Assembly (NCBI GenBank): GCA_963700285.1
Contig: CAVOXA010000001.1
Location: forward strand, 64,001-128,000
Reading direction: 5' to 3'
Source of the DNA: an uncultured Chloroflexia bacterium
GTDB taxonomy: Bacteria; Chloroflexota; Anaerolineae; JAAYZQ01
Length of the DNA: 64,000 bases
Part shown: positions 47,756 to 63,954 of the stretch, piece by piece
Layout of the letters: each line of letters opens with the position of its first letter
How positions within the stretch are numbered: position 1 is the stretch's first letter
Program-made: the position numbers and the translations under genes
Notes under the pieces: model-generated
What the model was told of the DNA's origin: nothing
Seen by the model: only the letters and a program-made list of their open reading frames with translations
Databases searched by the model: none

Positions 47756-48170
47756 CAACGGCAGTTTTGTCTTGTTTCCGTTTCGCATTGCAGTGCCCGT
47801 GAGGACCAAGGCATTTCTGAATGTAGCACCAACGGCAGGATCCCAGTTGCCAGTATCAGTAAGCCGCAACGAACTTCCCGCAAGCTTGACACAGGCCTCA
47901 GTCTTGACTCGCGTTCGTCGATTTCAATGGATTCAATACGTTCGCCCGGGCACAGCTTCCGAGAAGTTGGGCTGCCCATGCGCCGCACTGCAGGCCCTGA
48001 GCATTGTATTTCGGGTTAAGGCCTCTGTCAATTCCTGGTATACTTGTGATTGGCTCCGTTCAGACTTCCGATGGAGCCCTGCTCTTCTTAACGCTGCTGG
48101 CAACGGCACGGTCAGTTCCTTGCCCCGGCAGGGTTCTTGGAGTACAATGCTCCACGGGCACTGATCTCCG

Positions 48171-49928
48171 ATGAAAGTGGACAAGCGGCTTCTGCGGCAG
48201 GCGTGGGCATCGCGCATAGACCTGGCCTTGACAGTGGGCCTGGGTTTATTGGCGGGCATTGTGATCGTCGGCCAGGCACGCCTCCTGAGCCTGGTCGTGA
48301 GCCAGGTTTTCCTGGCGGGGGGGACCCTGGAGGCGGTCCGGCCGCAGTTGGCTGGCTTTCTGGTCCTGAGTCTGACCCTGGCCGCATTGGTATGGGGCCG
48401 TGAGGTCGCGGCCAATCGCGTGGCCGGCCGGGTCAAGTACGACCTGCGGGCGCGGCTGGTGGCCCACCTGCTGGACCTGGGGCCGGCCTATGCCCGGGGC
48501 GAACGCAGCGGCGAGCTGACCAACACCGTGGTGGAGGGCATCGAGGCCCTGGACGTCTACTATCGCCAGTACCTGCCCCAGCTGGCGCTGGCCGCACTGG
48601 TGCCGCTCACCGTGCTCCTCTTTGTCTTTCCACTGGACTGGCCCTCTGGCCTGATCTTGCTGCTGACCGCCCCCCTCATTCCCCTGTTCATGTGGTTGAT
48701 CGGCAACGCCGCCGAGGCGCTAACCCGGCGCCAGTGGACATCCATGAGCCGGATGAATGCCCACTTTTTGGACGTGCTGCAGGGGCTGACAACCCTGAAG
48801 GTGCTGGGCCGCAGCCGGGAGCAGATCCAGACCATCGCCCAGATCAGCGACCGCTACCGGCATGCAACCATGGGCGTGTTGCGGGTGACATTCCTGTCGG
48901 CCCTGGTGCTCGAGATGGTAGCCACCCTCAGCACGGCAGTGGTGGCGGTCCAGATCGGCCTGCGCCTGCTCTACGGCAGCCTGCTCTTTGAAGACGCCCT
49001 ATTCATTCTGCTACTGACGCCCGAGTTCTACCTCCCGCTGCGTTTACTGGGCACGCGCTTTCACGCCGGCATGGCGGGCGTGGCCGCTGCACAGCGGATC
49101 TTTGAGGTTCTGGAGACTGAGGCCAAGGTGGAGCCCAGGATTGGGGATCGGCCCTCTCATCATCTTGGTCTGAACCTCAGCCTTGGCTTTAGCAATGTAC
49201 ACTATGCCTATGACGAGGGGCGGCGTGCTGCGCTCAGGGGCTTGACGCTGGAGGTACTGCCTGGTCAGACGGTGGCCCTGGTCGGCCCTAGCGGCGCGGG
49301 CAAGAGTACGATGGCCTACCTTTTGCTGCGTTTCATAGAACCGGACCAGGGGATGATTCTGGTGGATGGCCGGCCGCTTCGAGACCTCTCCCGGCGGGCC
49401 TGGCGCGAGCAGGTGGCCTGGGTGCCGCAGAACCCCTACCTGTTCCACGGAACGGTGGCCGAGAATATTCGCCTTGCCCGTCCCAAGGCAAGCCTCGATG
49501 AGATGGCATGGGCCGCCCGCCAGGCCCATGCCCAGGCCTTTATTGAATCGTTGCCCCAGGGTTACGACACCGTCATCGGCGAGCGCGGCGCCCGATTGAG
49601 CGGCGGCGAGGCGCAGCGCCTTGCCCTGGCGCGGGCGTTCCTCAAGGATGCCCCGCTGCTGATCCTGGATGAGGCGACGGCCAACCTGGATCCAGAAATC
49701 GAGGACCTGGTGCAGGAGGCGATGGCGCGGCTGTTGATGGGCCGTACGGCCCTCATCATCGCCCACCGGCTCAGTACCGTGTACCGGGCCGACCGGATCC
49801 TGGTCATGTCCGAGGGCCGGATCCAGCAAGAGGGGACCCACGCAGAGCTTTTGCAACAGGCTGGGTTGTACAAGCAGTTGGTACACGCTTTCGACGGGGT
49901 TGCTTCTCCTGTGGGGGAGGCGCCATGA
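48171..49928 (+). CDS. cydD: Thiol-reductant ABC exporter CydD
   Basis: YYRQYLPQ, PEFYLPLRLLGTRFHA, GPSGAGKS, LSGGEAQR. Confidence 0.9.
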   Translation: MKVDKRLLRQAWASRIDLALTVGLGLLAGIVIVGQARLLSLVVSQVFLAGGTLEAVRPQLAGFLVLSLTLAALVWGREVAANRVAGRVKYDLRARLVAHLLDLGPAYARGERSGELTNTVVEGIEALDVYYRQYLPQLALAALVPLTVLLFVFPLDWPSGLILLLTAPLIPLFMWLIGNAAEALTRRQWTSMSRMNAHFLDVLQGLTTLKVLGRSREQIQTIAQISDRYRHATMGVLRVTFLSALVLEMVATLSTAVVAVQIGLRLLYGSLLFEDALFILLLTPEFYLPLRLLGTRFHAGMAGVAAAQRIFEVLETEAKVEPRIGDRPSHHLGLNLSLGFSNVHYAYDEGRRAALRGLTLEVLPGQTVALVGPSGAGKSTMAYLLLRFIEPDQGMILVDGRPLRDLSRRAWREQVAWVPQNPYLFHGTVAENIRLARPKASLDEMAWAARQAHAQAFIESLPQGYDTVIGERGARLSGGEAQRLALARAFLKDAPLLILDEATANLDPEIEDLVQEAMARLLMGRTALIIAHRLSTVYRADRILVMSEGRIQQEGTHAELLQQAGLYKQLVHAFDGVASPVGEAP

Positions 49929-51697
49929 GGAGTACCCTTGGGCGACTGCTTCGGATGGCTGCCCCTTTCTGGCAGAGGATGGCACTGGCGGCGCTGTTGG
50001 GCTTTGCCACCATCAGCAGCAGCATTGGATTGCTGACAACGTCCGCCTATTTGATCTCCAAAGCTTCGCTCCAACCCTCTATCGCCGAACTACAGGTGGC
50101 CATCGTCGGCGTACGCTTTTTTGGCATCGCCCGCGGGGTCTTTCGTTACCTGGAGCGCTACGCTTCCCACGATGTGACCCTGCGCCTTCTGTCCAGGCTT
50201 CGCGTCTGGTTCTACACTGCATTGGAGCCATTGGCTCCAGCCCGGCTCATGCAATACCACAGTGGCGACCTGTTGACCCGCCTCGGAGCAGATATCGAGA
50301 CGCTGGAGAATCTCTACCTGCGGGCCATCGCCCCGCCGGTTGTGGCGGTACTGGCGGCCGTGTTGGCGGCAGCGATCATGGCCAGTTTTTCCCCAAGCTT
50401 GGCGCTAGCGCTGCTGTTCTTTTTCCTGCTGGCCGGGGCTGGTGTGCCACTGCTGGCGCGGGTACTGGGCCGCGGCCCAGGGCAGCAACTGATCCGGGTA
50501 CGCGCCGAATTGAACAGCACGTTGGTGGATGGCATCCAGGGCATGGCCGATCTATTGGCCTTTGGCCAGCAGGAGCGCTACCTGGGCAGGGTGGCGGATC
50601 TTGGCCGGCGTCTGGGCGATGCCCAGCGACGTATGGCCCGCGGCGGCGGGCTGCAGAGCGCGTTGATCGGCCTGCTGATGAACCTGGCGGTTCTGGCCGT
50701 GCTGGTCGTCGCCATCCCGCTGATCCGTGCCGCTCAACTCGATGGGGTGTATCTGGCCCTGCTGGTGATGGCCGTGATTGCCTGCTTTGAGGCAGTGCTG
50801 CCGTTGCCCCAGGCGGCCCAATACCTGGACAACAGCCTGGAAGCAGCGCGGCGATTGTTCGAGATCGTGGATGTGGATCCGGCTGTCGTCGATCCTCGAC
50901 TGCCACTGCCTGCTCCTGATGGGTATGGGCTGCGGGGCGCGGATCTCCGCTTCGCCTACAATGAAGGGGAGCCTTTGGCTGTGGACGGCATCGGTTTTGA
51001 CCTGCCGCAGGGCAACTGCCTGGCCATCGTCGGACCCAGTGGCGCGGGCAAGTCGACGCTGGCCCACTTGATACTACGCTTCTGGGACTATAACGAGGGA
51101 ACCATCACCCTGGGCGGCAAGGACCTGCGCCAACTTGGCCAGGAGGATGTACGCCATCTCATCGCCGTGGTGTCGCAACATACCCATCTCTTTGGGGCCA
51201 CTGTGCGGGAAAACCTGCTTCTCTCCAGGCCAGAGGCCACCGAGGCGGAGATGATCGGGGCAGCGCAGCAAGCGCAGGTCCACGAATTCATCCGATCCCT
51301 GCCCCAGGGCTACGATACCTGGATCGGCGAGCAGGGCTGGCAACTGAGCGGCGGCGAGCGCCAGCGACTGGCTATTGCCCGTGCCATCTTGAAGGATGCC
51401 CCTATCTTGATCCTGGACGAGCCGACGGCCAACCTGGACAGCGTGACCGAGCGCGAGGTAATGAAAACCCTCCTGTCCCTCAGCGCCGAGCGCACGACGT
51501 TGCTCATCACCCACCGGTTGGTGGGTCTGGAACAGGCCGACGAGATCCTGGTGCTGCGGGGTGGGCGCGTCATAGAGCGGGGCAGCCATCACGACCTGGT
51601 TCAGATGCAGGGATTCTACCAGCGCATGTGGGACATTCAGAATCAGAGGCTGGCTGCCAGCCAGCCTGCCCGGGCCAAAGCACCCGCAATACTTTGA
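49925..51697 (+). CDS. cydC: Thiol-reductant ABC exporter CydC
   Basis: VRFFGIARGVFRYLERYASH, GPSGAGKS, LSGGERQR. Confidence 0.9.
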   Translation: MRSTLGRLLRMAAPFWQRMALAALLGFATISSSIGLLTTSAYLISKASLQPSIAELQVAIVGVRFFGIARGVFRYLERYASHDVTLRLLSRLRVWFYTALEPLAPARLMQYHSGDLLTRLGADIETLENLYLRAIAPPVVAVLAAVLAAAIMASFSPSLALALLFFFLLAGAGVPLLARVLGRGPGQQLIRVRAELNSTLVDGIQGMADLLAFGQQERYLGRVADLGRRLGDAQRRMARGGGLQSALIGLLMNLAVLAVLVVAIPLIRAAQLDGVYLALLVMAVIACFEAVLPLPQAAQYLDNSLEAARRLFEIVDVDPAVVDPRLPLPAPDGYGLRGADLRFAYNEGEPLAVDGIGFDLPQGNCLAIVGPSGAGKSTLAHLILRFWDYNEGTITLGGKDLRQLGQEDVRHLIAVVSQHTHLFGATVRENLLLSRPEATEAEMIGAAQQAQVHEFIRSLPQGYDTWIGEQGWQLSGGERQRLAIARAILKDAPILILDEPTANLDSVTEREVMKTLLSLSAERTTLLITHRLVGLEQADEILVLRGGRVIERGSHHDLVQMQGFYQRMWDIQNQRLAASQPARAKAPAIL

Positions 51698-51722
51698 CAC
51701 CCAGCCCATTTCATGTTACAAT
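51694..51722 (+). promoter_or_regulatory. Sigma70-type promoter of the ECF/Tup operon
   Basis: TTGACA-17 nt-TACAAT with TG extension. Confidence 0.8.
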
Positions 51723-51765
51723 TTTCACAGTTCCTTAAACAAGCAAGTGAAATAGCGGGTTTGTA

Positions 51766-51870
51766 GCATCTCCGAGCCTCGCCGCCTAAGGGTCCGAGTA
51801 GGCCTATGGGGTGAGGCCGGTAGGGTCTAGCTGGAAACGGCTATGCCTCCCACGCTTGGAAAGGAGATGC
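51766..51870 (+). ncRNA. Moco/Wco (molybdenum/tungsten cofactor) riboswitch
   Basis: P1 GCATCTCC/GGAGATGC; conserved CTCCGAG, CCTAAG, TATGG, GGAAAC, GCCTCCC, TTGGAAAGGAG blocks. Confidence 0.88.
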
Positions 51871-51889
51871 GCCCAGGGTAGTCAGGGCG

Positions 51890-51979
51890 CGGCGTCTCCA
51901 TGAGACGCCGTTTTTGATCGCCCAGGTTGTTGGATGACCTACAGTGGCGTCTCTTTACCTCCGAGACGCCGCTTTTTTT
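51890..51979 (+). terminator. Two tandem intrinsic terminators (riboswitch expression platform)
   Basis: CGGCGTCTC-CAT-GAGACGCCG-T5 and AGTGGCGTCTC-9 nt-GAGACGCCGCT-T6. Confidence 0.8.
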
Positions 51980-52019: not shown

Positions 52020-53381
52020 ATGGATCAAAGACGATACTATTTTTCTACGCGTGATCTGTTGATGATGGCTGCTCTGGCCGCCTTGGGCGGGGTGACCAGC
52101 ACCTACGTCAACGCCATCGGGGATCTCTTTCAGTCCGTTACTGGATTTGCCGGAACCACCCAGTGGGCCGCCGGCTTGCACGTCCTGTGGTTGACCCTGG
52201 CCGTGGGGCTGACTCGCAAGCAGGGGGCCGGTACCATCACCGGGCTGCTCAAGGGAGGGGTTGAGCTCCTTACCGGCAACACGCACGGCTTGTTGGTTGT
52301 GCTGGTGGATGTCGTGGCCGGCTTGCTGGTGGATCTAGGTTTCCTCCCTTTCAAAAAGAAGGACTCCCTGGCGGCCTACTGCCTGGCCGGAGGACTGGCC
52401 TCGGCCTCCAATGTGTTCGTCTTTCAGCTCTTTGCCTCGGTGCCCGCCGACACGCTGGCCTACTGGGCGCTGCTCTTGGTGGCGGCGGTGGCTTTTCTGT
52501 CTGGGGTGCTGTTCGCCGGGGTCCTGGCCCGAGCGCTGGTCAGTACCTTGCGCCGGGCAGGCGTAGTCAAAGACAGTTCTCCGGTCCCAATGAGCCGCAA
52601 AGCCTATCCCATCTTTCTGGTGGCCGGCACCCTGCTGGCAGTGGCTCTGACCCTATTCTTGCGACAGGCGCTGCGTGGTCCGACGACGGTGTACGTCGGT
52701 GGCGCGGTGGAGGCTGCCTACGACTATCCCCTGGAGAACGACGATATCGCGGAGGTCACCACCGAGGGTACACTGCGGAGTGTCACGACCAACTACACAG
52801 GCATACCGGTCCGTGAGCTCGTCGCCCGGGCCTTGCCGCGGCCCGGCGCTGCGCTGCTTCTGCTCCAGGCCTCCGATGGCTATGCCTTTTTCGTCAGTAT
52901 GTTGGAGGTGGACGAGAACGGCAGCCTGCTGCTGGCTCCGCAGGGCGAGGGCGAAGACGCTTCCTATAACGTGGTTGGAGCGCGAAACAGCAAGGCCTGG
53001 GTGCGGGGTGTCAGCGAGCTGGTTGTGATCGGCACGGCGACCCTGGAAGTGAGCGGCGCATTGGAGCAACCTGTACCCTTTGATCCAGATGATTGGCAGT
53101 TCGAGATGGACAGCATCCTCCTCAAGATAAGCGACAGCCCGCAAAAGTACCAGGGGGTTCCTCTGGGCAAGGTGTTGGGGGCAATGGAGCCACGGCCTGA
53201 GGCAGAGACCGTGGTGCTGGGCACAGAGGATGGGCCGGCCTCGCTTCCTCTGGACAAGGTACTAGGCGACGATAACCTGCGTCTATTCACCGTAATTGAT
53301 GGGGATCTGGTTTCCTTTGCCGTCGCTACTATGGACGGCGAGGTGATTGCCGCGCCGATAGTGTCCATCGAGGTGCGGTAG
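52020..53381 (+). CDS. ECF transporter S component fused to two molybdopterin-oxidoreductase-like domains
   Basis: FSTRDLLMMAALAALGG S-component start, about 6 TM plus an extra TM; YTGIPVREL, ASDGY, WVRGVSEL, YQGVPL. Confidence 0.78.
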   Translation: MDQRRYYFSTRDLLMMAALAALGGVTSTYVNAIGDLFQSVTGFAGTTQWAAGLHVLWLTLAVGLTRKQGAGTITGLLKGGVELLTGNTHGLLVVLVDVVAGLLVDLGFLPFKKKDSLAAYCLAGGLASASNVFVFQLFASVPADTLAYWALLLVAAVAFLSGVLFAGVLARALVSTLRRAGVVKDSSPVPMSRKAYPIFLVAGTLLAVALTLFLRQALRGPTTVYVGGAVEAAYDYPLENDDIAEVTTEGTLRSVTTNYTGIPVRELVARALPRPGAALLLLQASDGYAFFVSMLEVDENGSLLLAPQGEGEDASYNVVGARNSKAWVRGVSELVVIGTATLEVSGALEQPVPFDPDDWQFEMDSILLKISDSPQKYQGVPLGKVLGAMEPRPEAETVVLGTEDGPASLPLDKVLGDDNLRLFTVIDGDLVSFAVATMDGEVIAAPIVSIEVR

Positions 53382-53397
53382 GCTGTCTGGAACTCTG

Positions 53398-54870
53398 GTG
53401 GCTGTGGCAAAGATGATCGCCATTGAGGGGTTAAGCTACCGTTTTGAGGGCGGTAGGCGCGACGCCCTGTGCGATGTGACACTCTCGATCGTGCCAGGGG
53501 AATTTGTGGTTGTTACCGGGCCGTCGGGATGTGGCAAGTCGACCCTGGCCCTGGCCATTGGCGGCTACCTCTTTCGCCAGTATGATGGCCAGGCCAGCGG
53601 TACGGTGACTGTGGCTGGCATGGATGTGCAGGAACGTCCCATCTACGATGTGGCCGAGATCGTCGGATTGGTACAGCAGAATCCCGAGGCCCAGTTCTGC
53701 ACGCTTACGGTGCGGGACGAGGTAGCCTTTGGCCTGGAGAACCGATGCCTGCCCCGCGCCGAGATCCAGGAGCGCATCGCCTGGGCGCTGAGCATCGTCG
53801 GTGCGGAGCATCTGATCGAACGTTCTCTAGCAACTCTCTCGGGTGGGGAGAAGCAAAAAGTTGCTATCGCGGCCATGATGGCGGCCAAACCTCAGATTCT
53901 GATCTTTGACGAGCCGACCTCTAATCTGGATCCCTCGGCGACGGCCGAGGTGTTCGAGGTTATTGCCCACATCCGGGCCAAGGCTGGCATTACCGTACTG
54001 GTCATCGAGCACAAGGTGGACTATTTGCTATCCTTCGAGCCGCGGCTGCTGGCGATGGACGCCGGGTGCGTCGTCTACGATGGACCTTACGAAGGCTATG
54101 CCCGCCCCCTGGTCGGGCGGCCCAAGCAAGCGCTCCCCGTGCCTGACACTGGAGGGGAGCCGATCGTGCGGTTGCAGGGTGCCTGCCTGGGCTACAAGGG
54201 CCGCTCTGTGCTGAGGGATGTCTCCCTCGGCATCTGGCCGGGAGAGTTTGTGGCCGTGATGGGTGACAATGGTTCGGGCAAGACTACGTTTGTGCAGAGC
54301 TTGATGGGCTTGCTCAAGCCGGTGGAAGGCCGGGTCGAGGTTCTGGGCCAGGATATCCACGAGTCCTCCGTGTCGACGCTGGCCCGGAAGGTGGGCTTTG
54401 TCTTTCAGAACCCGGACCACCAGCTTTTCGCGGACAGCGTCTGGCAGGAAGCGGTGTTTGCCCTGCGCAATTTTGATCTCCTGGATGCTGCGGCCAGGGT
54501 ACGGGTTACAGAACTCCTGTCTCGCAGTGGCCTGGGCGACCGGGGCCAAGACCATCCTTACCGTCTGAGCTACGGACAGAAGCGCCGCTTGAACCTGATC
54601 TCTGTGCTGGGCTACGCGCCGCGCCTGATCTTGCTCGACGAAGTACTCATCGGGCAGGATCCGGACAACGCGGCTTTTCTGCTCGACCTGGTAAGAGAGC
54701 AGGTCGAGCAAGGCAGCGCGGCGGTCATGGTCAATCATGCGCCCAAGACGACCCGGCAGTATGCCAGCCGCGTGCTCTTTTTCGACGGCGGCAACGTTGT
54801 CGTGGATGCGGCTCCAGAGCAAGCTTTCGAGCAACTGAAATCGCTGGGAAAAGAAGCCTATGTCACCTGA
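53398..54870 (+). CDS. ECF transporter duplicated ATPase (A-A')
   Basis: GPSGCGKST, QNPEAQ, LSGGEKQK; GDNGSGKT, FQNPDHQ, LSYGQKRR. Confidence 0.9.
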   Translation: MAVAKMIAIEGLSYRFEGGRRDALCDVTLSIVPGEFVVVTGPSGCGKSTLALAIGGYLFRQYDGQASGTVTVAGMDVQERPIYDVAEIVGLVQQNPEAQFCTLTVRDEVAFGLENRCLPRAEIQERIAWALSIVGAEHLIERSLATLSGGEKQKVAIAAMMAAKPQILIFDEPTSNLDPSATAEVFEVIAHIRAKAGITVLVIEHKVDYLLSFEPRLLAMDAGCVVYDGPYEGYARPLVGRPKQALPVPDTGGEPIVRLQGACLGYKGRSVLRDVSLGIWPGEFVAVMGDNGSGKTTFVQSLMGLLKPVEGRVEVLGQDIHESSVSTLARKVGFVFQNPDHQLFADSVWQEAVFALRNFDLLDAAARVRVTELLSRSGLGDRGQDHPYRLSYGQKRRLNLISVLGYAPRLILLDEVLIGQDPDNAAFLLDLVREQVEQGSAAVMVNHAPKTTRQYASRVLFFDGGNVVVDAAPEQAFEQLKSLGKEAYVT

Positions 54871-55651
54871 CTCCCAGTTTGCCTACTCCCGAATCACCTT
54901 TCAGCCCGGCGACTCTTTTCTCCACCACCTGCACCCACTGGTCAAGGCGGCTTGGTTGCTCTTTGGCACCATCTTTGTCTTTGTCGTACGCAGCCCCTGG
55001 CCGGTGATGGTGATGGTAGCCCTGCTGCTGGTAGCCTTTCCCCTGATCGGTGTGCGCTTGGGGCGGTTGCGCGGGGCGCGGCTGTTCATCACGACCGCGC
55101 TGTTCTTGGGAATCCTTCAGGTCATTTTCCGGCAGGAGGGGGCCATCCTGTTCCAACTTGGTCCGCTGACCGTGACGGCGGGCGGCGTGGAGGCTGGGCT
55201 GTACGTGGCCGGGCGCTTTCTGAGCGTCATCCTGCTCAGCTACCTGTTCGTGCTGACCACTGAGCCCAACGACCTGGCCTTCGCCCTGATGCGCGCCGGG
55301 CTGCCCTACCGCTATGGCTTTACTCTGATTACCGCCCTGCGTCTGGTACCAACCTTCGAGCAGGAGGGTCAGATCGTCTACAACGCCCAACTGGCGCGCG
55401 GCGTCCGGTACGACGTGAGAAGCCCGCGCCGTTTTCTGACGCTGGCCCGCCAGTTCTTTCTACCGCTACTGGTCTCGGCGCTGGGCAAGGTGGACAGCCT
55501 GTCGGTGTCGATGGAGGGCCGCTGCTTTGGAAAGTATCGAACGCGGACCTTTCTGCGGGAAGTTCGGGCAACGTGGCGGGATGTGGTGGCACTTAGCCTG
55601 CTGGTGCTGGCGATTGGGTTGCTGGTGGGCTGGCGGCTGGTGAGTTGGTAG
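54860..55651 (+). CDS. ECF transporter T component
   Basis: SFLHHLHPLVK, ALRLVP, AQLARG and SMEGRC conserved Arg motifs. Confidence 0.9.
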   Translation: MSPDSQFAYSRITFQPGDSFLHHLHPLVKAAWLLFGTIFVFVVRSPWPVMVMVALLLVAFPLIGVRLGRLRGARLFITTALFLGILQVIFRQEGAILFQLGPLTVTAGGVEAGLYVAGRFLSVILLSYLFVLTTEPNDLAFALMRAGLPYRYGFTLITALRLVPTFEQEGQIVYNAQLARGVRYDVRSPRRFLTLARQFFLPLLVSALGKVDSLSVSMEGRCFGKYRTRTFLREVRATWRDVVALSLLVLAIGLLVGWRLVSW

Positions 55652-55690
55652 ATTGAGGACGTGGATACCCGGTACACGGGAGGGGAAGGC

Positions 55691-56614
55691 ATGTCAAAAC
55701 TGTGGTTGGTTCTACTGCTTGTCGGGGCATTGATCCTGGGTGGGATTGCCGTGGCGTTTGCGATGAATGCAAAAGCGATGGCGCCCGCACAGTCAGCGCT
55801 TCACTATCCATGGTCCCTGCTCGCCAAAGAGGCACAGACTATGAATGAGTGTGCCGAGTGCCACGAGACGGAGCATTTCCATACCTGCGCCTCGTGCCAC
55901 GACGACCACGGCTCGGCCGAGATGGCCAATGTGCCCTTTAACGCCCTGGTTCATCTGGCGGGTGATGTGCCTGAAGGCGGCTTTATCCCCGTTAATGAAA
56001 TCGTGCCCTACCGTGAGCAGCCCGGCACCCACGTGGCCCTCCTCGACTTTCTGTCCGCTAAGGGTGTGGACGACTTTGAAAGCGTCACCCTGGCCTCGCG
56101 CGATGGAGGGTTTGTGACGATCGACCGCGCCAATCTGACCGGAGAGGCGTTGTTGATGCCCCATGTGGATGGCATCCGCTTCGCTGCCGAGAACCTGCAC
56201 GTGTCCACGTGGCTCAAGGGCATCTCGCGTATTATCGTCGTGGGCGTGGATCGACCGCTGACGGTCGATGGCTACCACACATCGTTTGGGCGGTTGCTGA
56301 TGGGGCCGACCCGCTCGCTGACCATCGACCAGACCGACGTGATGCTCAAAAGCGAGGTCGATGGCGAGATTCGCAAAGCCAAGACAGCAGGCCGCATCGA
56401 GGGCGTACCTGTGGAAAAGATCGTCGAGGGGCCAGACTTTGGGCAACTGACCGTGTACGCTGCGGGTGGCCAAGAGCACGTCCTCTCGGCCAAAGACGCC
56501 AGAGGTGCGCTCCTGGCCCAACTGCGGGGCCGCCCCGAGGTCGTACTGGTGCTGCCGGAACTGGGCCGGGCAGAGTGGGTAACGGGCGTGGTAGAGATTT
56601 CGTCGGAGGAGTAG
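55691..56614 (+). CDS. Exported diheme (2x CxxCH) protein with molybdopterin-oxidoreductase-like domains
   Basis: N-terminal TM/signal; CAECH, CASCH; SRDG, WLKGISRI, WVTGVVEI. Confidence 0.65.
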   Translation: MSKLWLVLLLVGALILGGIAVAFAMNAKAMAPAQSALHYPWSLLAKEAQTMNECAECHETEHFHTCASCHDDHGSAEMANVPFNALVHLAGDVPEGGFIPVNEIVPYREQPGTHVALLDFLSAKGVDDFESVTLASRDGGFVTIDRANLTGEALLMPHVDGIRFAAENLHVSTWLKGISRIIVVGVDRPLTVDGYHTSFGRLLMGPTRSLTIDQTDVMLKSEVDGEIRKAKTAGRIEGVPVEKIVEGPDFGQLTVYAAGGQEHVLSAKDARGALLAQLRGRPEVVLVLPELGRAEWVTGVVEISSEE

Positions 56615-56617
56615 TCA

Positions 56618-57808
56618 ATGTCCCGTCATCTCAGTACACGGGCTGGTTCACAGTCCAGTAGTAGCGGCGGCGGACAGTGGTCCGCCGCGAGCATTCGAAT
56701 CGTATCCTTGGTTCTACTCGTTGTGTTATCGGGCTGTGGTTCTACCTGGAAAGCGACAGTGGTGGCGCCGGACGGTAGCGACTATTTTGTGGACAGCAAG
56801 GTCCTCGACGGCCTGGCCGACTTTGCCGAGGAAGACAAGGGCATGCCCCTGGAGCGCGTGCTGTACAGTGCGGGGCATCGCGCCATCGAGCACCTCGTGG
56901 TCGTGGATGCCGATGGAGTGCGCCGTGCGTTCGACTGGGCCGATGCAGCAGAAGAGGCATGGTGGCGACAGGATGGACAGATCGTCCTCAACGGTGAGGT
57001 ACTCCCGGCGGCGCGGATGGAGGTCGAGCCGCCAGCGCTGCTAGACCGGGTCAGTGCGGAAATCACCGACATCGCGCCGACGGCGGCTGCCGCCCTGGGC
57101 ATCCCAGCTCCGGTGCAGGCCAGTGGTCAGGCGCTGGATGAAGCTACGGCTGACCAGGTGCTGCTCCTGTTCCTGGATGGTTTTGGTTACTCGCGCTATC
57201 GCGAGGCCCTGGATGGTGGACTTGTCCCCAACCTGGCCGCCCTTGGCGAGCCGCAGGTGGCCCTGACCGTCTATCCGCCTTGTACCAGCGTCGGCTCGGC
57301 GGCCTTGCTCACTGGGGCACAGCCGGAAGCGAATGGGGTGGACCGGCGGGGCATTCGCAAGACAGAAACGGAGACTCTGTTCGATGTCGCCGAGGCAGCA
57401 GGGCTGGACGTCGTTGCCGTTGAGGGCGATGCGCTGGCCTTCAACCTGCGCAATTCAGACATGCAGCTTTCGGGAGACCGGGACGGGGATGGCAGCACCG
57501 ACGACAACGTGCTGGCCAATGCGCTGACAGTGCTGGACGAGGGAATGCCCGATCTGTTCTACGTACATTTTCACGGCATCGACGATGCCGGGCACACCTA
57601 CGGCCCAGGCACGCCAGCGGAAGAGGCTGTCATCCGCGAGGTAGACGCAGCCGTGGGCCAGCTACTGGGGAGGCTACCCTCGGATACGCTTATCATCGTT
57701 TTTGCTGACCACGGCATGCACCATGTGATAGAAGAAGGGAGGCTGGGAAATCACGGGCACCTGATCGAGCGGGACATGTTCATACCCATCTGGACAGTGG
57801 GGAAGTGA
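56618..57808 (+). CDS. Lipoprotein of the alkaline phosphatase/nucleotide pyrophosphatase superfamily
   Basis: LSGC lipobox; FLDGFG, PPCT, HGIDDAGH, ADHG, GNHG metal ligands. Confidence 0.8.
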   Translation: MSRHLSTRAGSQSSSSGGGQWSAASIRIVSLVLLVVLSGCGSTWKATVVAPDGSDYFVDSKVLDGLADFAEEDKGMPLERVLYSAGHRAIEHLVVVDADGVRRAFDWADAAEEAWWRQDGQIVLNGEVLPAARMEVEPPALLDRVSAEITDIAPTAAAALGIPAPVQASGQALDEATADQVLLLFLDGFGYSRYREALDGGLVPNLAALGEPQVALTVYPPCTSVGSAALLTGAQPEANGVDRRGIRKTETETLFDVAEAAGLDVVAVEGDALAFNLRNSDMQLSGDRDGDGSTDDNVLANALTVLDEGMPDLFYVHFHGIDDAGHTYGPGTPAEEAVIREVDAAVGQLLGRLPSDTLIIVFADHGMHHVIEEGRLGNHGHLIERDMFIPIWTVGK

Positions 57809-57894
57809 GGAAAAGGATATACTTGCGACAAGTAAACAGGCGAATATCAAGTGCGCAGCCAAGGAATGAAAGGATCATAAAGGGAGGCAAACAA

Positions 57895-58776
57895 ATGGAG
57901 AAAGTAAGAAGGTACTCTGTGTTGGGTGTGGTTGTGCTGGTAGGGGTTCTGCTGGCCGCGGGCCTGGCGGGCTGTGGGGGTGGCAGTGCGCCTGACGTGG
58001 ACTGGGAACTGGCGGTCAGCGGGGACGTTGCGACGCCTCTGACGCTAACCTACGCCAAGCTGGCCGAGATGCCCCAGACGGACCTGGAAAACATCCTGAT
58101 GGAAAAGTCGGTGGGCGAGGATACGACAGGTTCCTGGAGTGGCGTGGATCTGGCAAAGCTCCTTGAGGATGCGGGGGCAAGCGCCGAGTATGCCAGCATC
58201 ACCGCGATAGCCGCCGATGGCTATGCCGTCGAGATCTCTAACGAGGAAACGCAGGACGGTATCGTGGCCCTGAAGGAGAACGGGGAGTGGATCGCGGAGG
58301 CGGATCCGGACCACGGCCCCATCCGCCTGGTCTTTTCCCATACACCGGCCAACCGCTGGGTGTTCCAGATCCAGGAGATTCAGGTGAATGACATGGCCCA
58401 GGGGGGCGGGGGCATTCCCGAGGACGCAGCGCTCAAGATTACGGGCAGCGTCGAAACCGAGGTGGGATGGGCTGAGGACAAGCTGCGCAGCTTTGATACC
58501 ATCGAGGTTGAATCGACCAACAAGGATGGCGAGACCAAGACCTATACCGGCGTAGCTATCAACGACCTGTTGGGCAAAGCAGGGCCAACGAGCGAGGCGA
58601 CAACCCTAGTTCTGATCGCTGACGATGGCTATTCGGCGGAAGTGGCTCTGGTCGAGGTGCAAGCCTGTGAGGATTGTATCGTCTCCTTCCGCAACCAGGG
58701 CGGCTTTAGCACAGTCCTGCCAGGGTTCCCGGGCAATGCTCAGGTCAAGGGCGTAGTCGAGATCCAGGTCAAGTAG
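57895..58776 (+). CDS. Lipoprotein with two molybdopterin-oxidoreductase-like domains (no catalytic Cys)
   Basis: LAGC lipobox; WELAVSGDV, WSGVDLAKLL, AADGY, HGPIRLV; second domain YTGV, ADDGY, CEDC. Confidence 0.78.
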   Translation: MEKVRRYSVLGVVVLVGVLLAAGLAGCGGGSAPDVDWELAVSGDVATPLTLTYAKLAEMPQTDLENILMEKSVGEDTTGSWSGVDLAKLLEDAGASAEYASITAIAADGYAVEISNEETQDGIVALKENGEWIAEADPDHGPIRLVFSHTPANRWVFQIQEIQVNDMAQGGGGIPEDAALKITGSVETEVGWAEDKLRSFDTIEVESTNKDGETKTYTGVAINDLLGKAGPTSEATTLVLIADDGYSAEVALVEVQACEDCIVSFRNQGGFSTVLPGFPGNAQVKGVVEIQVK

Positions 58777-58786
58777 GAGAGATGTC

Positions 58787-59500
58787 ATCGACGAGATCTT
58801 GAGCGGCCTGCTCGAGGCCATCCGCCTGATTGTCACCCTGGACGAAGCCCTATTCGAGATCATAGGCCTATCGCTGCGCGTGTCGGGCACCGCGCTGCTG
58901 TTCAGCACTGTGATCGGCATCCCACTGGGCGCGGTTATGGGCATGAGCCGCTTTGCCGGGCGCAAAATGGTCATTGCCCTGCTCTACACTGGCATGGGCT
59001 TTCCGCCGGTGGTCGTCGGCCTGTTCGTCTACCTGATGCTGTCGCGCAGCGGCCCGCTGGGGCAACTCAACTCACCACTGATCCCGGCCCTGTTCACGCC
59101 GGCGGCTATGGTCGTGGCCCAGACGATCATCTCTTTTCCGCTGGTGGCCGGGTTCACCATGGCTGCCGTCATGGGCGTGGATCCGGCCTTGCGCCAGCAG
59201 GTCCAATCGCTGGGTGCCACCCGCTGGCAGACGACGGTGGCGATCCTGACCGAGGCGCGGATAGGCGTGATTGTATCGGTCATTGCCGGTTTTGGCAGCA
59301 TCATCTCCGAGGTGGGCGCAGTGATGATGGTCGGCGGCAACATCGAGGACCGCACGCGGGTGCTGACTACGGCCATCGTCCTGGAGACCCGCAAGGGCAA
59401 CTTTGACCTGGCCATCGCCATCGGTGTGGTCCTGCTGGGCATCGCGTTCCTGACCAACGTGGGCATGCTGCGCCTGCAAGGGAGGACGTTCGACGAATGA
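58787..59500 (+). CDS. tupB: Tungstate ABC transporter permease (start ATC 58787 or TTG 58799)
   Basis: MGFPPVVVGL, GFGSIISEVGAVMMVGGNI, TRVLTTAI. Confidence 0.88.
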   Translation: MDEILSGLLEAIRLIVTLDEALFEIIGLSLRVSGTALLFSTVIGIPLGAVMGMSRFAGRKMVIALLYTGMGFPPVVVGLFVYLMLSRSGPLGQLNSPLIPALFTPAAMVVAQTIISFPLVAGFTMAAVMGVDPALRQQVQSLGATRWQTTVAILTEARIGVIVSVIAGFGSIISEVGAVMMVGGNIEDRTRVLTTAIVLETRKGNFDLAIAIGVVLLGIAFLTNVGMLRLQGRTFDE

Positions 59501-60228
59501 GCGACACGGTCTATCGTGTGCAGAACGTCAGCAAAGAGTACAACGGCCGGCGCGTACTGCAGGTACAGGAGCTGGAGATCGAGCGTGGTGAGATCCTTGC
59601 CCTGGTCGGTCCCAGCGGCGCGGGCAAGAGTACGCTGCTGCGGCTGCTCAACTTTCTGGAGCCGCCCACCAGCGGAAGCATTCGCTTCCTGGACGCCGAG
59701 TTCAGCGCCAACCAGCCGATGCCTCTGAAACACCGACGTCGGGTGACAACGGTCTTTCAGCGGCCCCTGCTGCTCAACCGCAGCGTGCAGGCCAACGTTG
59801 GCTACGGTCTGAGCTTGCGTGGTCGCCGCAAATCAAGCGACGAGATCGAGAGAGCACTGGAGCAGGTTGGCCTGCTGCATCTGACGCACCAGCGGGCGCG
59901 GACCCTGTCGGGCGGCGAGGCACAGCGGGTGGCCCTGGCGCGTGCCATCGTCCTCCAACCAGATGTGTTGCTGCTGGACGAGCCGACGGCCAACCTGGAT
60001 CCCTACAACGTGGGCCTGATCGAAGAGATCGTGACCAACCTGAATCGAGAACGAGGTACCACGCTGGTGCTGGTGACCCACAACGTCTTTCAGGCCAAGC
60101 GGCTGGCCCACCGGGTAGCCTTGATGCTGGACAGCCAGATCGTGGAAGTGGCCGGAGCCAGGACCTTTTTCGAATCACCGCAGGACTCGCGCACGGCAGC
60201 ATTTGTGCGCGGCGAGATGGTCTATTGA
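59497..60228 (+). CDS. tupC: Tungstate ABC transporter ATPase
   Basis: GPSGAGKST, LSGGEAQR, DEPTANLDP; follows tupB. Confidence 0.85.
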   Translation: MSDTVYRVQNVSKEYNGRRVLQVQELEIERGEILALVGPSGAGKSTLLRLLNFLEPPTSGSIRFLDAEFSANQPMPLKHRRRVTTVFQRPLLLNRSVQANVGYGLSLRGRRKSSDEIERALEQVGLLHLTHQRARTLSGGEAQRVALARAIVLQPDVLLLDEPTANLDPYNVGLIEEIVTNLNRERGTTLVLVTHNVFQAKRLAHRVALMLDSQIVEVAGARTFFESPQDSRTAAFVRGEMVY

Positions 60229-60267
60229 GGCAAGAAATCCCATATCGCAAGAAACAAGGAGGAAACG

Positions 60268-61582
60268 ATGTCAAAGAAAGCATGGATCCTGTTGAGTGTT
60301 TTCGTGCTGTTGGCGAGCATCCTGGTTGGCTGCGGCAGTACCCCTGAGCCGGCCCAGGCGCCAGAGCCCACTGCTATCCCGCCGACAGAGGCGCCAGAGC
60401 CTACCGTTCCACCGCCGACCGAGGCGGCCGAACCAACGGAGCCAGGGAAGCTGATTCTGGCCACGACCACCAGCACCGAGAACTCGGGTTTGCTGGCCTA
60501 TCTCCTACCTCACTTTGAAGAGGAATTCGGTGTGGAGATAGAAGTCATTGCCGTGGGCACCGGCCAGGCTCTCCAGCTGGGCGAGGATGGCAATGCTGAC
60601 GTGCTGATGGTGCATGCCCGCACCAGGGAGGACGCCTTTATGGATGCGGGTCACGGCGTGCGCCGCGAGGACGTGATGTACAATGACTTTGTCATCGTCG
60701 GCCCGCCCGATGACCCGGCAGGCATCCAGGGAATGGGAAGAGCCACCACGGCCATGGCCATGATCGCTGAAGCCGAGGCTGCCCTTTGTCTCGCGCGGCG
60801 ACGATTCGGGCACCCATACCAAGGAGAAGGCGATCTGGGCAGAGACGGGCGTCGAGCCAGCAGGCGACTGGTACATCTCTGCCGGGCAGGGCATGGGCGC
60901 CGTGCTGACCATGGCCGACGAGCAGCAGGCTTATACCCTCAGCGACCGGGCTACCTATCTGGCCCGCACGCTGGAGGGAACCGACCTGGAGATCCTGGTC
61001 GAAGGCGACCCCATCCTGTTCAATCCGTACGGTGTCATGGCCGTCAACCCGGACAAGAATCCCCAGATCAACAACGAGCTGGCCAACAAGTTCATCGACT
61101 GGTTGGTCTCGATGCCTACCCAGGAAATGATCGGCGAGTTCGGCGTGGCCGAGTTTGGCGCGCCCCTCTTTACACCCGACTCGGTAGCCTGGCGCGAGGC
61201 GCAGGGAGGTGGCGAGGAGCCGGCCGGTGATATGGCCCTCAGGATAACGGGCAACGTCAGCCAGGAAGTTGGTTGGACTGAAGAAGAGGTGCGGGCCATG
61301 GAGACCATGGAGGCAGAGTCTACCAACAAGAGCGGTGAGACCAAGACCTACACCGGCGTGTCTGTGAACAAGTTGCTAGAAGAGGCCGGCGTCGCCGACG
61401 GTGCGACCGCGGTCGTCTTTGTCGCCGACGATGGCTACACCGGTGAGCTGACCTTGGAAGAGGTGCAAAACTGCGCCGACTGTATCGTCTCCTTCCGAGA
61501 GCAGGGGGGCTTTAGCACAGTAATGCCTGGTTTCCCCGGGAACGTCCAGGTGAAGGGCGTGATCGAGATCCAAGTCAAGTAG
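60268..61582 (+). CDS. tupA: Tungstate-binding lipoprotein fused to a C-terminal molybdopterin-oxidoreductase-like domain (frameshift near 60783)
   Basis: LVGC lipobox; ATTTSTENSGLL, VMYNDF, FVSRGDDSGTH after the frame change, YTLSDRATY, LFNPY. Confidence 0.88.
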
Positions 61583-61589
61583 GGGAATA

Positions 61590-61621
61590 GACCTGGCAGG
61601 TATTCTGATACCTGCCAGGTC
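61590..61621 (+). terminator. Hairpin after tupA
   Basis: GACCTGGCAGGTAT-TCTG-ATACCTGCCAGGTC. Confidence 0.6.
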
Positions 61622-61628
61622 GAAACGT

Positions 61629-61657
61629 TTGACGGCTTGCCCGATCCTCACTATACT
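61629..61657 (+). promoter_or_regulatory. Sigma70-type promoter
   Basis: TTGACG-17 nt-TATACT. Confidence 0.7.
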
Positions 61658-61709
61658 GTGCCTGCGCCACTCAGGCGCGCGACATCAGAGCCAGGAAAGT
61701 GAGATTGCT

Positions 61710-62537
61710 ATGAGCTTGAAACGAGACGAGAGCGGCCGGCTTCACATCGACACGCCGCTGATGGCCGAGTCGTTGATGGACAAGAAACTATTGCGAGATA
61801 CCGAGACCGAGACAGTCTTTCGCCCGCTACCGGACCTGAACGTGGTCAAGCTGGGCGGACAGAGCATCATCGACCGGGGGCGGAGCGTGGTACTGCCTTT
61901 GCTGGACGAGATCGTAGCTACTCGGGCTGAGCATCCGCTGTTGATCATGACGGGCGGGGGAACCCGCAGCCGCCATGCCTATGCCATCGCCCTGGATCTG
62001 GACATGCCCACCGGCGTGCTGGCCAAGCTGGGCGCCAGCATTAGCGAGCAGAACGCGTTGATGCTCTCGATCCTTTTGGCGCCGCACGGCGGGATCAAGA
62101 TCGGCCATGACGATGTGGTCAAGCTACCGGCCTATCTGGCCATGGGCATCATTCCCGTGATGCACGCCATGCCACCCTACAGCCTGTGGGAGGAGCCGGC
62201 AGAGCAGGGGCGCATTCCGCCGCACCGCACCGATTCCGGAGCTTTTCTTACCGCCGAGGTGATCGGCGCCCGGCGCTGCATTCTAGTCAAAGATGAGCCG
62301 GGGCTGTTCACCGCTGATCCCAAGAAGGATCCAGATGCCAACTTTATCTCAGAGGTTGAGGTGGGCGAACTGCTGGCCATGGATCTGCCCGATCTGCCTG
62401 TGGAGCGAGCAATGCTGCGCGCCCTGTCGGGCGCGCGCAGCGTGCACGAGGTGCTGCTGGTCAATGGCCGGGAGCCAGGCCAGTTGACCCGTGTACTGGC
62501 CGGGGAGAATCCCGGGACGCGCATTTACCGGGCTTGA
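61710..62537 (+). CDS. Molybdenum storage protein-like (amino-acid/uridylate kinase fold)
   Basis: LMAESL, VVKLGGQSIIDRG, GGGTRSRH, MPPYSLWE, IPPHRTDSG, LFTADPK. Confidence 0.82.
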   Translation: MSLKRDESGRLHIDTPLMAESLMDKKLLRDTETETVFRPLPDLNVVKLGGQSIIDRGRSVVLPLLDEIVATRAEHPLLIMTGGGTRSRHAYAIALDLDMPTGVLAKLGASISEQNALMLSILLAPHGGIKIGHDDVVKLPAYLAMGIIPVMHAMPPYSLWEEPAEQGRIPPHRTDSGAFLTAEVIGARRCILVKDEPGLFTADPKKDPDANFISEVEVGELLAMDLPDLPVERAMLRALSGARSVHEVLLVNGREPGQLTRVLAGENPGTRIYRA

Positions 62538-62579: not shown

Positions 62580-62912
62580 CTACTTGCGACCAGCGCGGCG
62601 AGGGCCGCGCGGCCGTGGGGGCTGCACGGTAAAGCTGCCGCCCTCGATCTGCAAGGCACGTCCTTCAACCAGCGCCTGGGCGACCTGGCGGCGGGCCTGG
62701 GCGACGATACGCTGAAAGGTGGAGCGAGAGATGGCCATCTGGGCCGCCGCCTCCGCCTGGGTGAGGCCTTCCAGGTCTGCCAGGCGGAGTGCTTCCAGCT
62801 CTTCGTAGAGCAGGTTGAGGCGCGTCAGCTCGTTCAGCGGTACGCCAGCCGGCTTGTAGATGGCTGGCCGGGGCCGATTCTCCAGGGAACGCTGCTTGCG
62901 GGGACGAGGCAT
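62580..62912 (-). CDS. DUF134 family DNA-binding protein
   Basis: MPRPRK.R, YKPAGVP, EELEALRLADLEGL.Q..AA..M.ISR.TF. Confidence 0.88.
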   Translation of the reverse strand: MPRPRKQRSLENRPRPAIYKPAGVPLNELTRLNLLYEELEALRLADLEGLTQAEAAAQMAISRSTFQRIVAQARRQVAQALVEGRALQIEGGSFTVQPPRPRGPRRAGRK

Positions 62913-63267: not shown

Positions 63268-63954
63268 ATGCTCTTCATTGGTTTGGATGATACAGATACA
63301 CTTGAATCCCGGGGGACTGGACATCTGGCCCGGCAGATTGCTGCTACGCTGGCCGCCGACCATACCTTGTTGGGCGTGACGCGCCACCAGTTGTTGGTGG
63401 ACCCACGCGTGCCCTGTACCAGGAACAATAGCTGCGCGGCCATCGTTCTAGATGGGGACGGTGATGTTGATATGGCTAGTCTGCTGGCTCGCGTGTGGGC
63501 GCTGATGATGGATGACTTTCAGTTGGGCAGCGATCCGGGTCTGTGCATCGCCCACACGGTGCCCGATGCCGTCACCGCATTTGGGCGCAGGGCTCAGCGC
63601 CACCTGATCGCCCAGTCTGAAGCACGAAACCTGGCTGCCGCCCATCAGATTCCTCTGTTGGGGCTGGGCGGTACGGAGGATGGCGTGATTGGCGCCCTGG
63701 CGGCCGTAGGACTGGCGGCCAGTGGTGAAGATGGCCGCTACGTCTTGGTGGGCAGCTCTCGGGAACTGAACGGCTTGCGCCCGGTGTCTGAGCTCTTGCA
63801 GGCAGGCATCGCTGTCGTGCAGACCGCGGCCGGTGAACCGGTGCTGGATGGGCTGGTTCAGACTGACAAGTTGCGACCGGCGCGGCGCGGCACCCGCCCC
63901 ATCGCCGTCGTCGAGTGGGCAGGTGACCATTGGTTGCCACTCAAGCTTGACTAG
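63268..63954 (+). CDS. TiaS N-terminal-like (DUF1743-like) protein
   Basis: IGLDDTD, RGTG, RHQL, CTRNNS, SDPGL, GVIGALAAVG. Confidence 0.7.
   Translation: MLFIGLDDTDTLESRGTGHLARQIAATLAADHTLLGVTRHQLLVDPRVPCTRNNSCAAIVLDGDGDVDMASLLARVWALMMDDFQLGSDPGLCIAHTVPDAVTAFGRRAQRHLIAQSEARNLAAAHQIPLLGLGGTEDGVIGALAAVGLAASGEDGRYVLVGSSRELNGLRPVSELLQAGIAVVQTAAGEPVLDGLVQTDKLRPARRGTRPIAVVEWAGDHWLPLKLD

Follow-up and report, generated by a model that had tools for sequence, protein, structure and literature searches.

A sulfite-oxidase-fold domain without the molybdenum-ligand cysteine, repeated through an Anaerolineae operon that is a likely salvage line for the molybdenum/tungsten cofactor

What does a domain of the sulfite-oxidase fold do when it is exported, repeated and fused to the subunits of transporters? 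The question is raised by an operon of an uncultured bacterium of the Chloroflexota (Anaerolineae), found in a 64,000-nucleotide stretch of DNA (assembly GCA_963700285.1, contig CAVOXA010000001.1, positions 64,001 to 128,000), here called the window. The answer proposed, to which we assign a probability of roughly 60%, is that the domain faces outward and is non-catalytic, likely binding the pterin of the molybdenum or tungsten cofactor (Moco, Wco), which the operon likely serves to salvage. The fold, the loss of the molybdenum-ligand cysteine, the export signals, the riboswitch, the gene order and the co-occurring phosphatases are direct observations, and the steps beyond gene content and fold are what we infer from them. 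To our knowledge, molybdopterin and tungstopterin are regarded as made by each prokaryote for itself, the free form being unstable; uptake of ready-made Moco is reportedly documented for C. elegans. No description of a prokaryotic Moco importer or salvage route was found in the literature searched, most subscription journals lying outside it.

The genes form a single co-directional run from 52020 to 62537 on the plus strand, preceded by a leader with regulatory features (window coordinates; d1 and d2 are the first and second domain of a protein):

51694–51722, plus strand: sigma-70-type promoter-like site with extended −10 (11 of 12 matches; one found against a shuffle mean of 0.3)
51758–51882, plus strand: Moco/Wco riboswitch aptamer RF01055 without the P3 stem (73.4 bits, cut-off 36)
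51889–51916, plus strand: intrinsic-terminator-like hairpin immediately 3' of the aptamer (stem 51889–51911, then a T run)
52020–53381, plus strand: S component of an energy-coupling factor (ECF) importer, YkoE-like (PF09819), with an extra membrane helix and two sulfite-oxidase-like domains (~52674–53033 and ~53034–53378)
53398–54870, plus strand: ECF double ATPase (two ABC_tran stretches)
54860–55651, plus strand: ECF T component (CbiQ, 107 bits)
55691–56614, plus strand: membrane-anchored diheme protein with two divergent domains (~55937–56251 and ~56252–56611)
56618–57808, plus strand: lipoprotein of the nucleotide pyrophosphatase/phosphodiesterase (NPP) family, with a probable degenerate domain (~56732–57037)
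57895–58776, plus strand: lipoprotein with two sulfite-oxidase-like domains, d1 at 57994–58392 (D-G-Y, G-P-x-R, W-V) and d2 at 58420–58773 (CxxC)
58799–59500, plus strand: TupB-like permease (best specific model TupB, 155 bits, below the cut-off of 320)
59497–60228, plus strand: TupC-like ATP-binding cassette (ABC) ATPase, named from gene context
60268–61582, plus strand: TupA-like tungstate-binding lipoprotein, frameshifted near 60780 and ending in one CxxC-type domain (61226–61579)
61710–62537, plus strand: molybdenum storage protein beta-like gene (E-value 7e-74 to MoSto beta)

The original prediction held that one domain is shared by at least four proteins of this operon. This stands, with seven copies (two in the S component fusion, two in the diheme protein, two in the lipoprotein at 57895 and one in TupA), the literal motifs being complete in the lipoprotein, the TupA tail and d1 of the S fusion and nowhere else. 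Pfam PF00174 matches two stretches of the lipoprotein above its cut-off (78.7 bits) and the TupA tail (32.5 bits), falls slightly below the cut-off in the S fusion (23.2 bits), and gives no Pfam match in the diheme protein. Pairwise scores against shuffles, together with profile-profile comparison, tie the lipoprotein, TupA and S fusion copies to one another and leave those of the diheme protein borderline. Among the domains of the lipoprotein and of the S fusion, five of six profile pairs reach 88–98% probability, the exception being d2 of the S fusion against d1 of the lipoprotein (4%); the diheme domains reach 50% at most. A more diverse profile was trained iteratively on some 500 domains, from which 41 homologues of the diheme protein and the phosphatase were kept out. 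It scores 22.3 and 23.5 bits on d1 and d2 of the diheme protein and 14.3 bits on the N-terminus of the NPP-family phosphatase; none of 200 shuffles of each sequence reached these values (maxima 3.3–5.7), and the scores of the remaining five copies are circular. The phosphatase, a fifth protein, therefore probably carries an eighth, degenerate copy.

As regards the fold, its assignment to the Oxidored_molyb (sulfite oxidase/MsrP) type was borne out by predicted structures and a structure search, which match sulfite-oxidase enzymes. The model of the lipoprotein (predicted local distance difference test, pLDDT, 87.6) matches SorA, SoxC, sulfite oxidase, YedY and PruR, and in that of the diheme protein (pLDDT 81.2) residues 186–307, corresponding to d2, adopt the sulfite-oxidase/PruR fold (Z 10.2–12.2). 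Its d1 (residues 83–187) finds general beta-grasp matches only, the best Z for d1 alone being 6.8, so that, judged by the model, it is the weakest of the copies; the sulfite-oxidase domain is itself described as a beta-grasp derivative related to the ligand-binding SLBB domains (PMC1949818). The fold is thus assigned by structure in the lipoprotein and in d2 of the diheme protein, and by profile only in the S fusion and TupA copies. Solved structures searched with the lipoprotein sequence alone yielded E-values of 0.06–0.4 at best, Foldseek with the diheme model returned no match at E < 0.001, and the Atlas search yielded leads below 0.9 only.

Export of the domains, also predicted, is supported by signal and lipobox sequences and, in the S fusion, by an extra membrane helix with its positive charge on the inner side: about five Lys/Arg residues precede it and one follows, which places the two fused domains outside. 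Across the homologues, the domain is fused to three transporter classes and its repeats reach five copies per protein.

The description of the copies as cysteine-less holds for the position that matters to catalysis and fails as a general statement: no copy in the window has a cysteine in the hairpin before WxGV, and a CxxC does occur at another place in the TupA tail and in lipoprotein d2, in the latter invariant in 120 of 120 homologues. As a control, a separate MsrP-like protein of the same genome does have the cysteine before WxGV. Any cysteine in the hairpin region is found in 14 of 322 non-redundant domains (508 hits minus redundant and gappy rows). Most of these 14 belong to a multi-copy surface-protein subtype with a cysteine just before the hairpin, often as C-x-x-H or C-x-H (loci L083, L099, L069, L117, L124 and L050/L056), which could bind metal. 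The window copies share with SorA (2blf), SoxC (2xts) and MsrP/YedY (1xdq) the fold and the C-terminal P-x-R-L and W-V motifs; they differ in lacking the molybdenum-ligand cysteine, and about 22 residues of the cysteine loop of SorA and SoxC are missing in the S-fused domain. The enzymes also differ in their dimerisation domain, for which no match was seen in the window proteins.

These likenesses allow a different view of the operon, namely that its domains form a surface redox enzyme holding Moco or Wco without a cysteine ligand and exchanging electrons with the diheme protein in the manner of SorA and SorB, the ECF part being secondary. The top fold matches are indeed enzymes of the sulfite-oxidase family, the two CxxCH motifs and two further histidines of the diheme protein are all invariant, the CxxC is invariant in some copies, and the NCBIfam diheme family NF041762 shares the domain. 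We nevertheless hold this to be very unlikely: the cysteine-bearing loop is replaced or deleted, the domain is fused to transporter subunits and repeated up to five times, the terminator suggests repression by the cofactor, and no diheme homologue was detected by profile and BLAST screening in the 80 distant loci described below. The family NF041762 ('GEGP motif-containing diheme protein') is uncharacterised and represents a second pairing of c-type heme with a sulfite-oxidase domain lacking the cysteine; the diheme protein of the window does not match it.

The notion of a non-catalytic exported binder has, by analogy, an experimental precedent in PruR, an exported member without the cysteine, which is reported to hold simple pterins between Y104 and W160, with N102 as a further contact, and to have a shortened hairpin plugged by a Pro-Trp motif (PMC11194511). 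PruR (PDB 7kos, 7kou, 7kom, 7kp2, 7rkb) resembles the window domains in export, in fold and in the absence of the molybdenum-ligand cysteine, with template modelling (TM) scores of 0.68–0.74, depending on the target, for the lipoprotein model and a Z of 10.7–10.8 for d2 of the diheme protein. Its pterin contacts N102-x-Y104 align with D108-x-Y110 of the lipoprotein. The D-x-Y motif is present in both lipoprotein domains, the TupA tail and d1 of the S fusion and degenerate in the remaining copies, and the pattern of D/N plus two aromatic residues is complete in 195 of 313 non-redundant domains. In lipoprotein d1, W155 is kept in 120 of 120 and F157 in 119 of 120 homologues.

The differences from PruR bear on the ligand. 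The window domains have no Pro-Trp plug, and the hairpin of lipoprotein d1 is about four residues longer than that of a Vibrio PruR. The arginine of the G-x-P-x-R motif of the enzymes, an aromatic residue in PruR, is kept in lipoprotein d1, in 119 of its 120 homologues and in at least 90% of 11 distant S fusions; we take it to bind the cofactor phosphate, a role for which no confirming paper was found. PruR is, moreover, a single small domain partnered with a c-di-GMP or kinase sensor, whereas here it occurs in several copies, joined to subunits for transport and to a phosphatase, in an operon led by a Moco riboswitch; a DcpA-type sensor operon is absent, the neighbours being ECF, phosphatase and Tup genes. 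The ligand might instead be another pterin, a precursor or a breakdown product, bound as in PruR (neopterin or monapterin phosphates, cyclic pyranopterin monophosphate, or methanopterin or folate fragments). PruR, the only characterised member without the cysteine, binds simple pterins, and the short-hairpin copies resemble it; archaeal loci have no riboswitch link, and a phosphatase/kinase pair would suit any phosphorylated pterin. The longer hairpin and the retained arginine speak against such a ligand, as do the Moco/Wco riboswitch and the Tup, molybdenum-storage and moa neighbours in bacteria and the lack of a folate riboswitch in the window and in the 15 loci scanned with Rfam, and we regard it as quite unlikely.

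The pterin-binding reading is extended by the importer to which the domain is fused. YkoE-type importers are under thiamine riboswitch control, and the window importer resembles YkoEDC in the family of its S component (E-value 1e-19); as in group I ECF importers, dedicated A and T partners are encoded beside the S component, in an operon behind a cofactor riboswitch. Glu77 alone is kept here out of five thiamine ligands: Trp49 is replaced by His, Tyr46 and Gln95 by Ala, and Asp131 by Gln. The extra helix, the external domains and the Moco riboswitch are further differences. YkoEDC itself is described as a group I ECF thiamine importer (PDB 5edl; PMC5037267). The domain type (PruR) and the transporter class (group I ECF) are known, and what is new is a system whose substrate is undescribed.

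A link to the cofactor is supported by the riboswitch in the leader, to which the original prediction did not refer. RF01055 was the sole riboswitch found upstream of the S component in Rfam scans of the window and related loci. The type without P3 has been linked to tungsten metabolism (PMC2408646), so that the window aptamer appears to be of the tungsten-associated type; the hairpin behind it, weak when taken alone (shuffle mean 0.5), suggests that the operon is repressed by the cofactor. In every one of the 14 Anaerolineae cassettes for which upstream DNA is available, counting that of the window, a riboswitch heads the unit, in two of them ahead of tupBCA placed first. The P3 insert occurs in 3 of these 14, and the presence of both types fits a ligand common to molybdenum and tungsten metabolism. 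No riboswitch was found at stand-alone YkoE-like S loci among L157–L180 (1.5 kb flanks). Tandem Moco riboswitches were also observed (L041:1539–1885 and L077:4438–4732).

The names attached to the homologues are those of Anaerolineae and Chloroflexota. The diheme family is present in 15 of 61 related genomes and in none of 400 other genomes of the phylum, where the full fusion of S component and domains is also absent, so that the cassette is patchy. Among the 27 related loci examined (two being the same record), the order S, A, T, diheme protein, phosphatase, lipoprotein is kept wherever the contig covers it, with a rearranged lipoprotein part in L046 and L049.

The genes that follow bring the metal itself into consideration. 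Homologues of the TupABC tungstate importer lie in the operon, the difference being that TupA has one or two C-terminal sulfite-oxidase-like domains. In relatives, tupA is intact, with frames of 563–583 amino acids and two such domains; since, in addition, one related contig lacks a base near 60780 and moeA is likewise split in this assembly, the frameshift is likely an assembly error. The domain is also repeated in surface proteins beside tungstate/molybdate transporter and moa genes, mostly behind the riboswitch, and some of its neighbours presumably encode WtpA/ModA-like proteins. In addition, class III (Peripla_BP_2) binding proteins of FecCD-type ABC systems carry one to three copies of it (L048, L050, L051, L053), with a Moco riboswitch ahead of the fusion in L048, L051 and L053 and neighbours that we take to be XdhC and AmmeMemoRadiSam genes. 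All this may be read as metal uptake, the domains binding tungstate, molybdate or an organic chelate and feeding TupA, the class III proteins and a metal-type ECF importer. The fusions to TupA and class III proteins and the adjoining WtpA/ModA-like genes (as we assume them to be) favour it, as do the molybdenum-storage gene that comes next in the operon and the retention of moaA and moaC by the genomes. Molybdate and tungstate transporters are, furthermore, known under Moco riboswitch control (PMC2408646). Metal uptake leaves unexplained two unrelated exported phosphatases and a kinase linked to the importer, the conserved D-x-Y of the pterin contacts, and a vitamin-type (YkoE) S component beside a complete Tup system; we consider it unlikely.

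The phosphatases and the kinase, overlooked in the original prediction, point to salvage. In the NPP-like lipoprotein of the window the metal ligands and the Thr nucleophile are intact, and the six catalytic residues checked are invariant in the 17–18 homologues that cover them. A distant set in which the fusion of S component and domain recurs, the best 80 of 359 confirmed metagenome places (57 clusters at 90% identity, 17 at 60%), has the ECF A gene in 73 and the T gene in 57, many of the loci being short, and also carries multi-copy domain proteins. Representatives at 50% identity include about 20 fusions of the S component with one domain (330–380 residues), some members bearing the names of Bacillota or Asgard archaea. 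In 47 of the 52 distant loci with 2 kb upstream (10 of 17 clusters), the domain is fused to an exported calcineurin-like phosphoesterase, which is unrelated to the NPP-type phosphatase and occupies the same slot. Two unrelated phosphatase families in one slot, each apparently with the domain, point to a cargo that is a phosphorylated organic molecule recognised by the domain. A small Bud32/RIO-like kinase with invariant catalytic residues accompanies 26 of the 38 fully covered distant loci (8 of 17 clusters), and a Moco riboswitch is present in 13 of the 80 (3 of 17 clusters). The AA-kinase-family gene that ends the window operon was also tried as the missing pterin kinase and rejected, being a close homologue of the molybdenum storage protein.

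Taken together, the riboswitch, the fold, the vitamin-type S component, the phosphatases and the kinase find their simplest joint account in the salvage of molybdopterin or tungstopterin, along the lines of vitamin salvage (capture, trimming, import and re-phosphorylation). When the cofactor is low, the riboswitch would permit transcription of the operon, and the lipoprotein and the fused domains would catch and shield molybdopterin, or its metal-bound or dinucleotide forms, released from lysed cells. The exported NPP-type enzyme could then split the dinucleotide form, removing its nucleotide so that molybdopterin monophosphate is left; in the distant lineages the calcineurin-like enzyme would strip the phosphate, to be restored by the linked cytoplasmic kinase. 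The diheme protein may keep the oxidation-sensitive pterin-dithiolene reduced, the S-fused domains would hand the pterin to the ECF importer, and those on TupA would let freed tungstate be captured on the spot. Once inside, the pterin might enter the metal-insertion step for the many tungsten-family enzymes of this genome, where the tungsten aldehyde-oxidoreductase family has 21 matches. The NAD salvage of Haemophilus, in which the kinase NadR is said to perform the re-phosphorylation, is a similar arrangement, with an exported phosphatase that trims a nucleotide cofactor, import of the product and a kinase that restores it; the transporter and the substrate are unrelated, so this is an analogy and not a homology. 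Its phosphatases are reported as NadN and e(P4) and its importer as PnuC (PMC10694654).

Several observations weigh against the salvage reading. The PruR pocket is described as not long enough to take Moco (PMC11194511), the alignments to PruR end before W160, so that the C-terminal Trp is only a putative counterpart of that residue, and the pocket motif is partly lost in d2 of the S fusion, both diheme domains and the phosphatase N-terminus. The best structural relatives of the kinase are protein kinases of the Bud32/RIO type, and in this genome and its relatives this query gave only weak generic hits; a missing kinase in the NPP-type lineage fits an enzyme that leaves the monophosphate, and may equally be a gap in the model. 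The riboswitch was not seen in 67 of the 80 distant loci. Finally, this genome is no clear auxotroph, having moaA and moaC side by side with a MOSC-like gene, and auxotrophy as the driver in the lineage was rejected, moaC being present in 44 of the 46 genomes without the cassette as well as in 13 of the 15 that have it.

The synthesis genes deserve a further comment. Four genomes have moeA and no moaC or moaA hits, two with the cassette (G417, G419) and two in which it was not found (G402, G406); as moaA adjoins moaC here, one missing contig could explain each double absence. No match to moaE was found in this genome, nor in 13 of the 15 genomes with the cassette, and the same holds for all 10 cassette-free genomes of the same family, so that its absence is confounded by family and does not discriminate. 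In family f1, moaE occurs in only 2 of 23 genomes, despite 4–26 tungsten-enzyme matches in each. The position of moaA and moaC beside the MOSC-like gene suggests an alternative sulfur-insertion step.

Whether anaerobic bacteria and archaea share a dedicated Mo/W cofactor salvage, comprising a bucket line of domains, conditioning by phosphatase and cytochrome, ECF import of the pterin, metal recovery by TupA and a new kinase family, is in our estimate an even call. Candidate parts for it can be named from the operon and its counterparts: an S component, a pair of phosphatases that stand in for each other, a presumptive kinase for the pterin, and a binding domain one relative of which has a solved structure. 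If true, such a pathway would explain how demand is met in anaerobes that have incomplete synthesis genes or tungsten enzymes by the tens, add a new ECF substrate and natural Moco-stabilising carrier proteins, and make molybdopterin a cross-fed vitamin of anoxic communities.

Around the operon, two ABC exporter genes, which we take to be cydDC-like, lie directly upstream (48171–51697) and adjoin the cassette elsewhere only in a genome of the same genus. Further upstream, 45740–47869 (minus strand) encodes an exported protein of 709 amino acids with no confident Pfam match, by eye glycoside-hydrolase-like. Beside the molybdenum-storage gene, a small DNA-binding-like gene (62580–62912, minus strand), presumably DUF134-like, is a possible regulator. 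The genome has a second Moco/Wco riboswitch, also without P3 (G000:C1:1378776–1378910; loci L009 and L062), and the operon behind it looks, by our own naming from the sequence, to be of the formate-dehydrogenase type. A second ECF module follows, at 63268–63954 of the window and just past its end (L063:26–3432), with a TiaS/methanogenesis-marker-11-like gene, a double ATPase, a T component, a stand-alone S component and a membrane-anchored protein of 169 amino acids that scores as a degenerate domain copy (23.8 bits). In other Chloroflexota, a lipoprotein with one CxxC-type domain precedes the same tiaS-like gene, once behind a riboswitch (L163).

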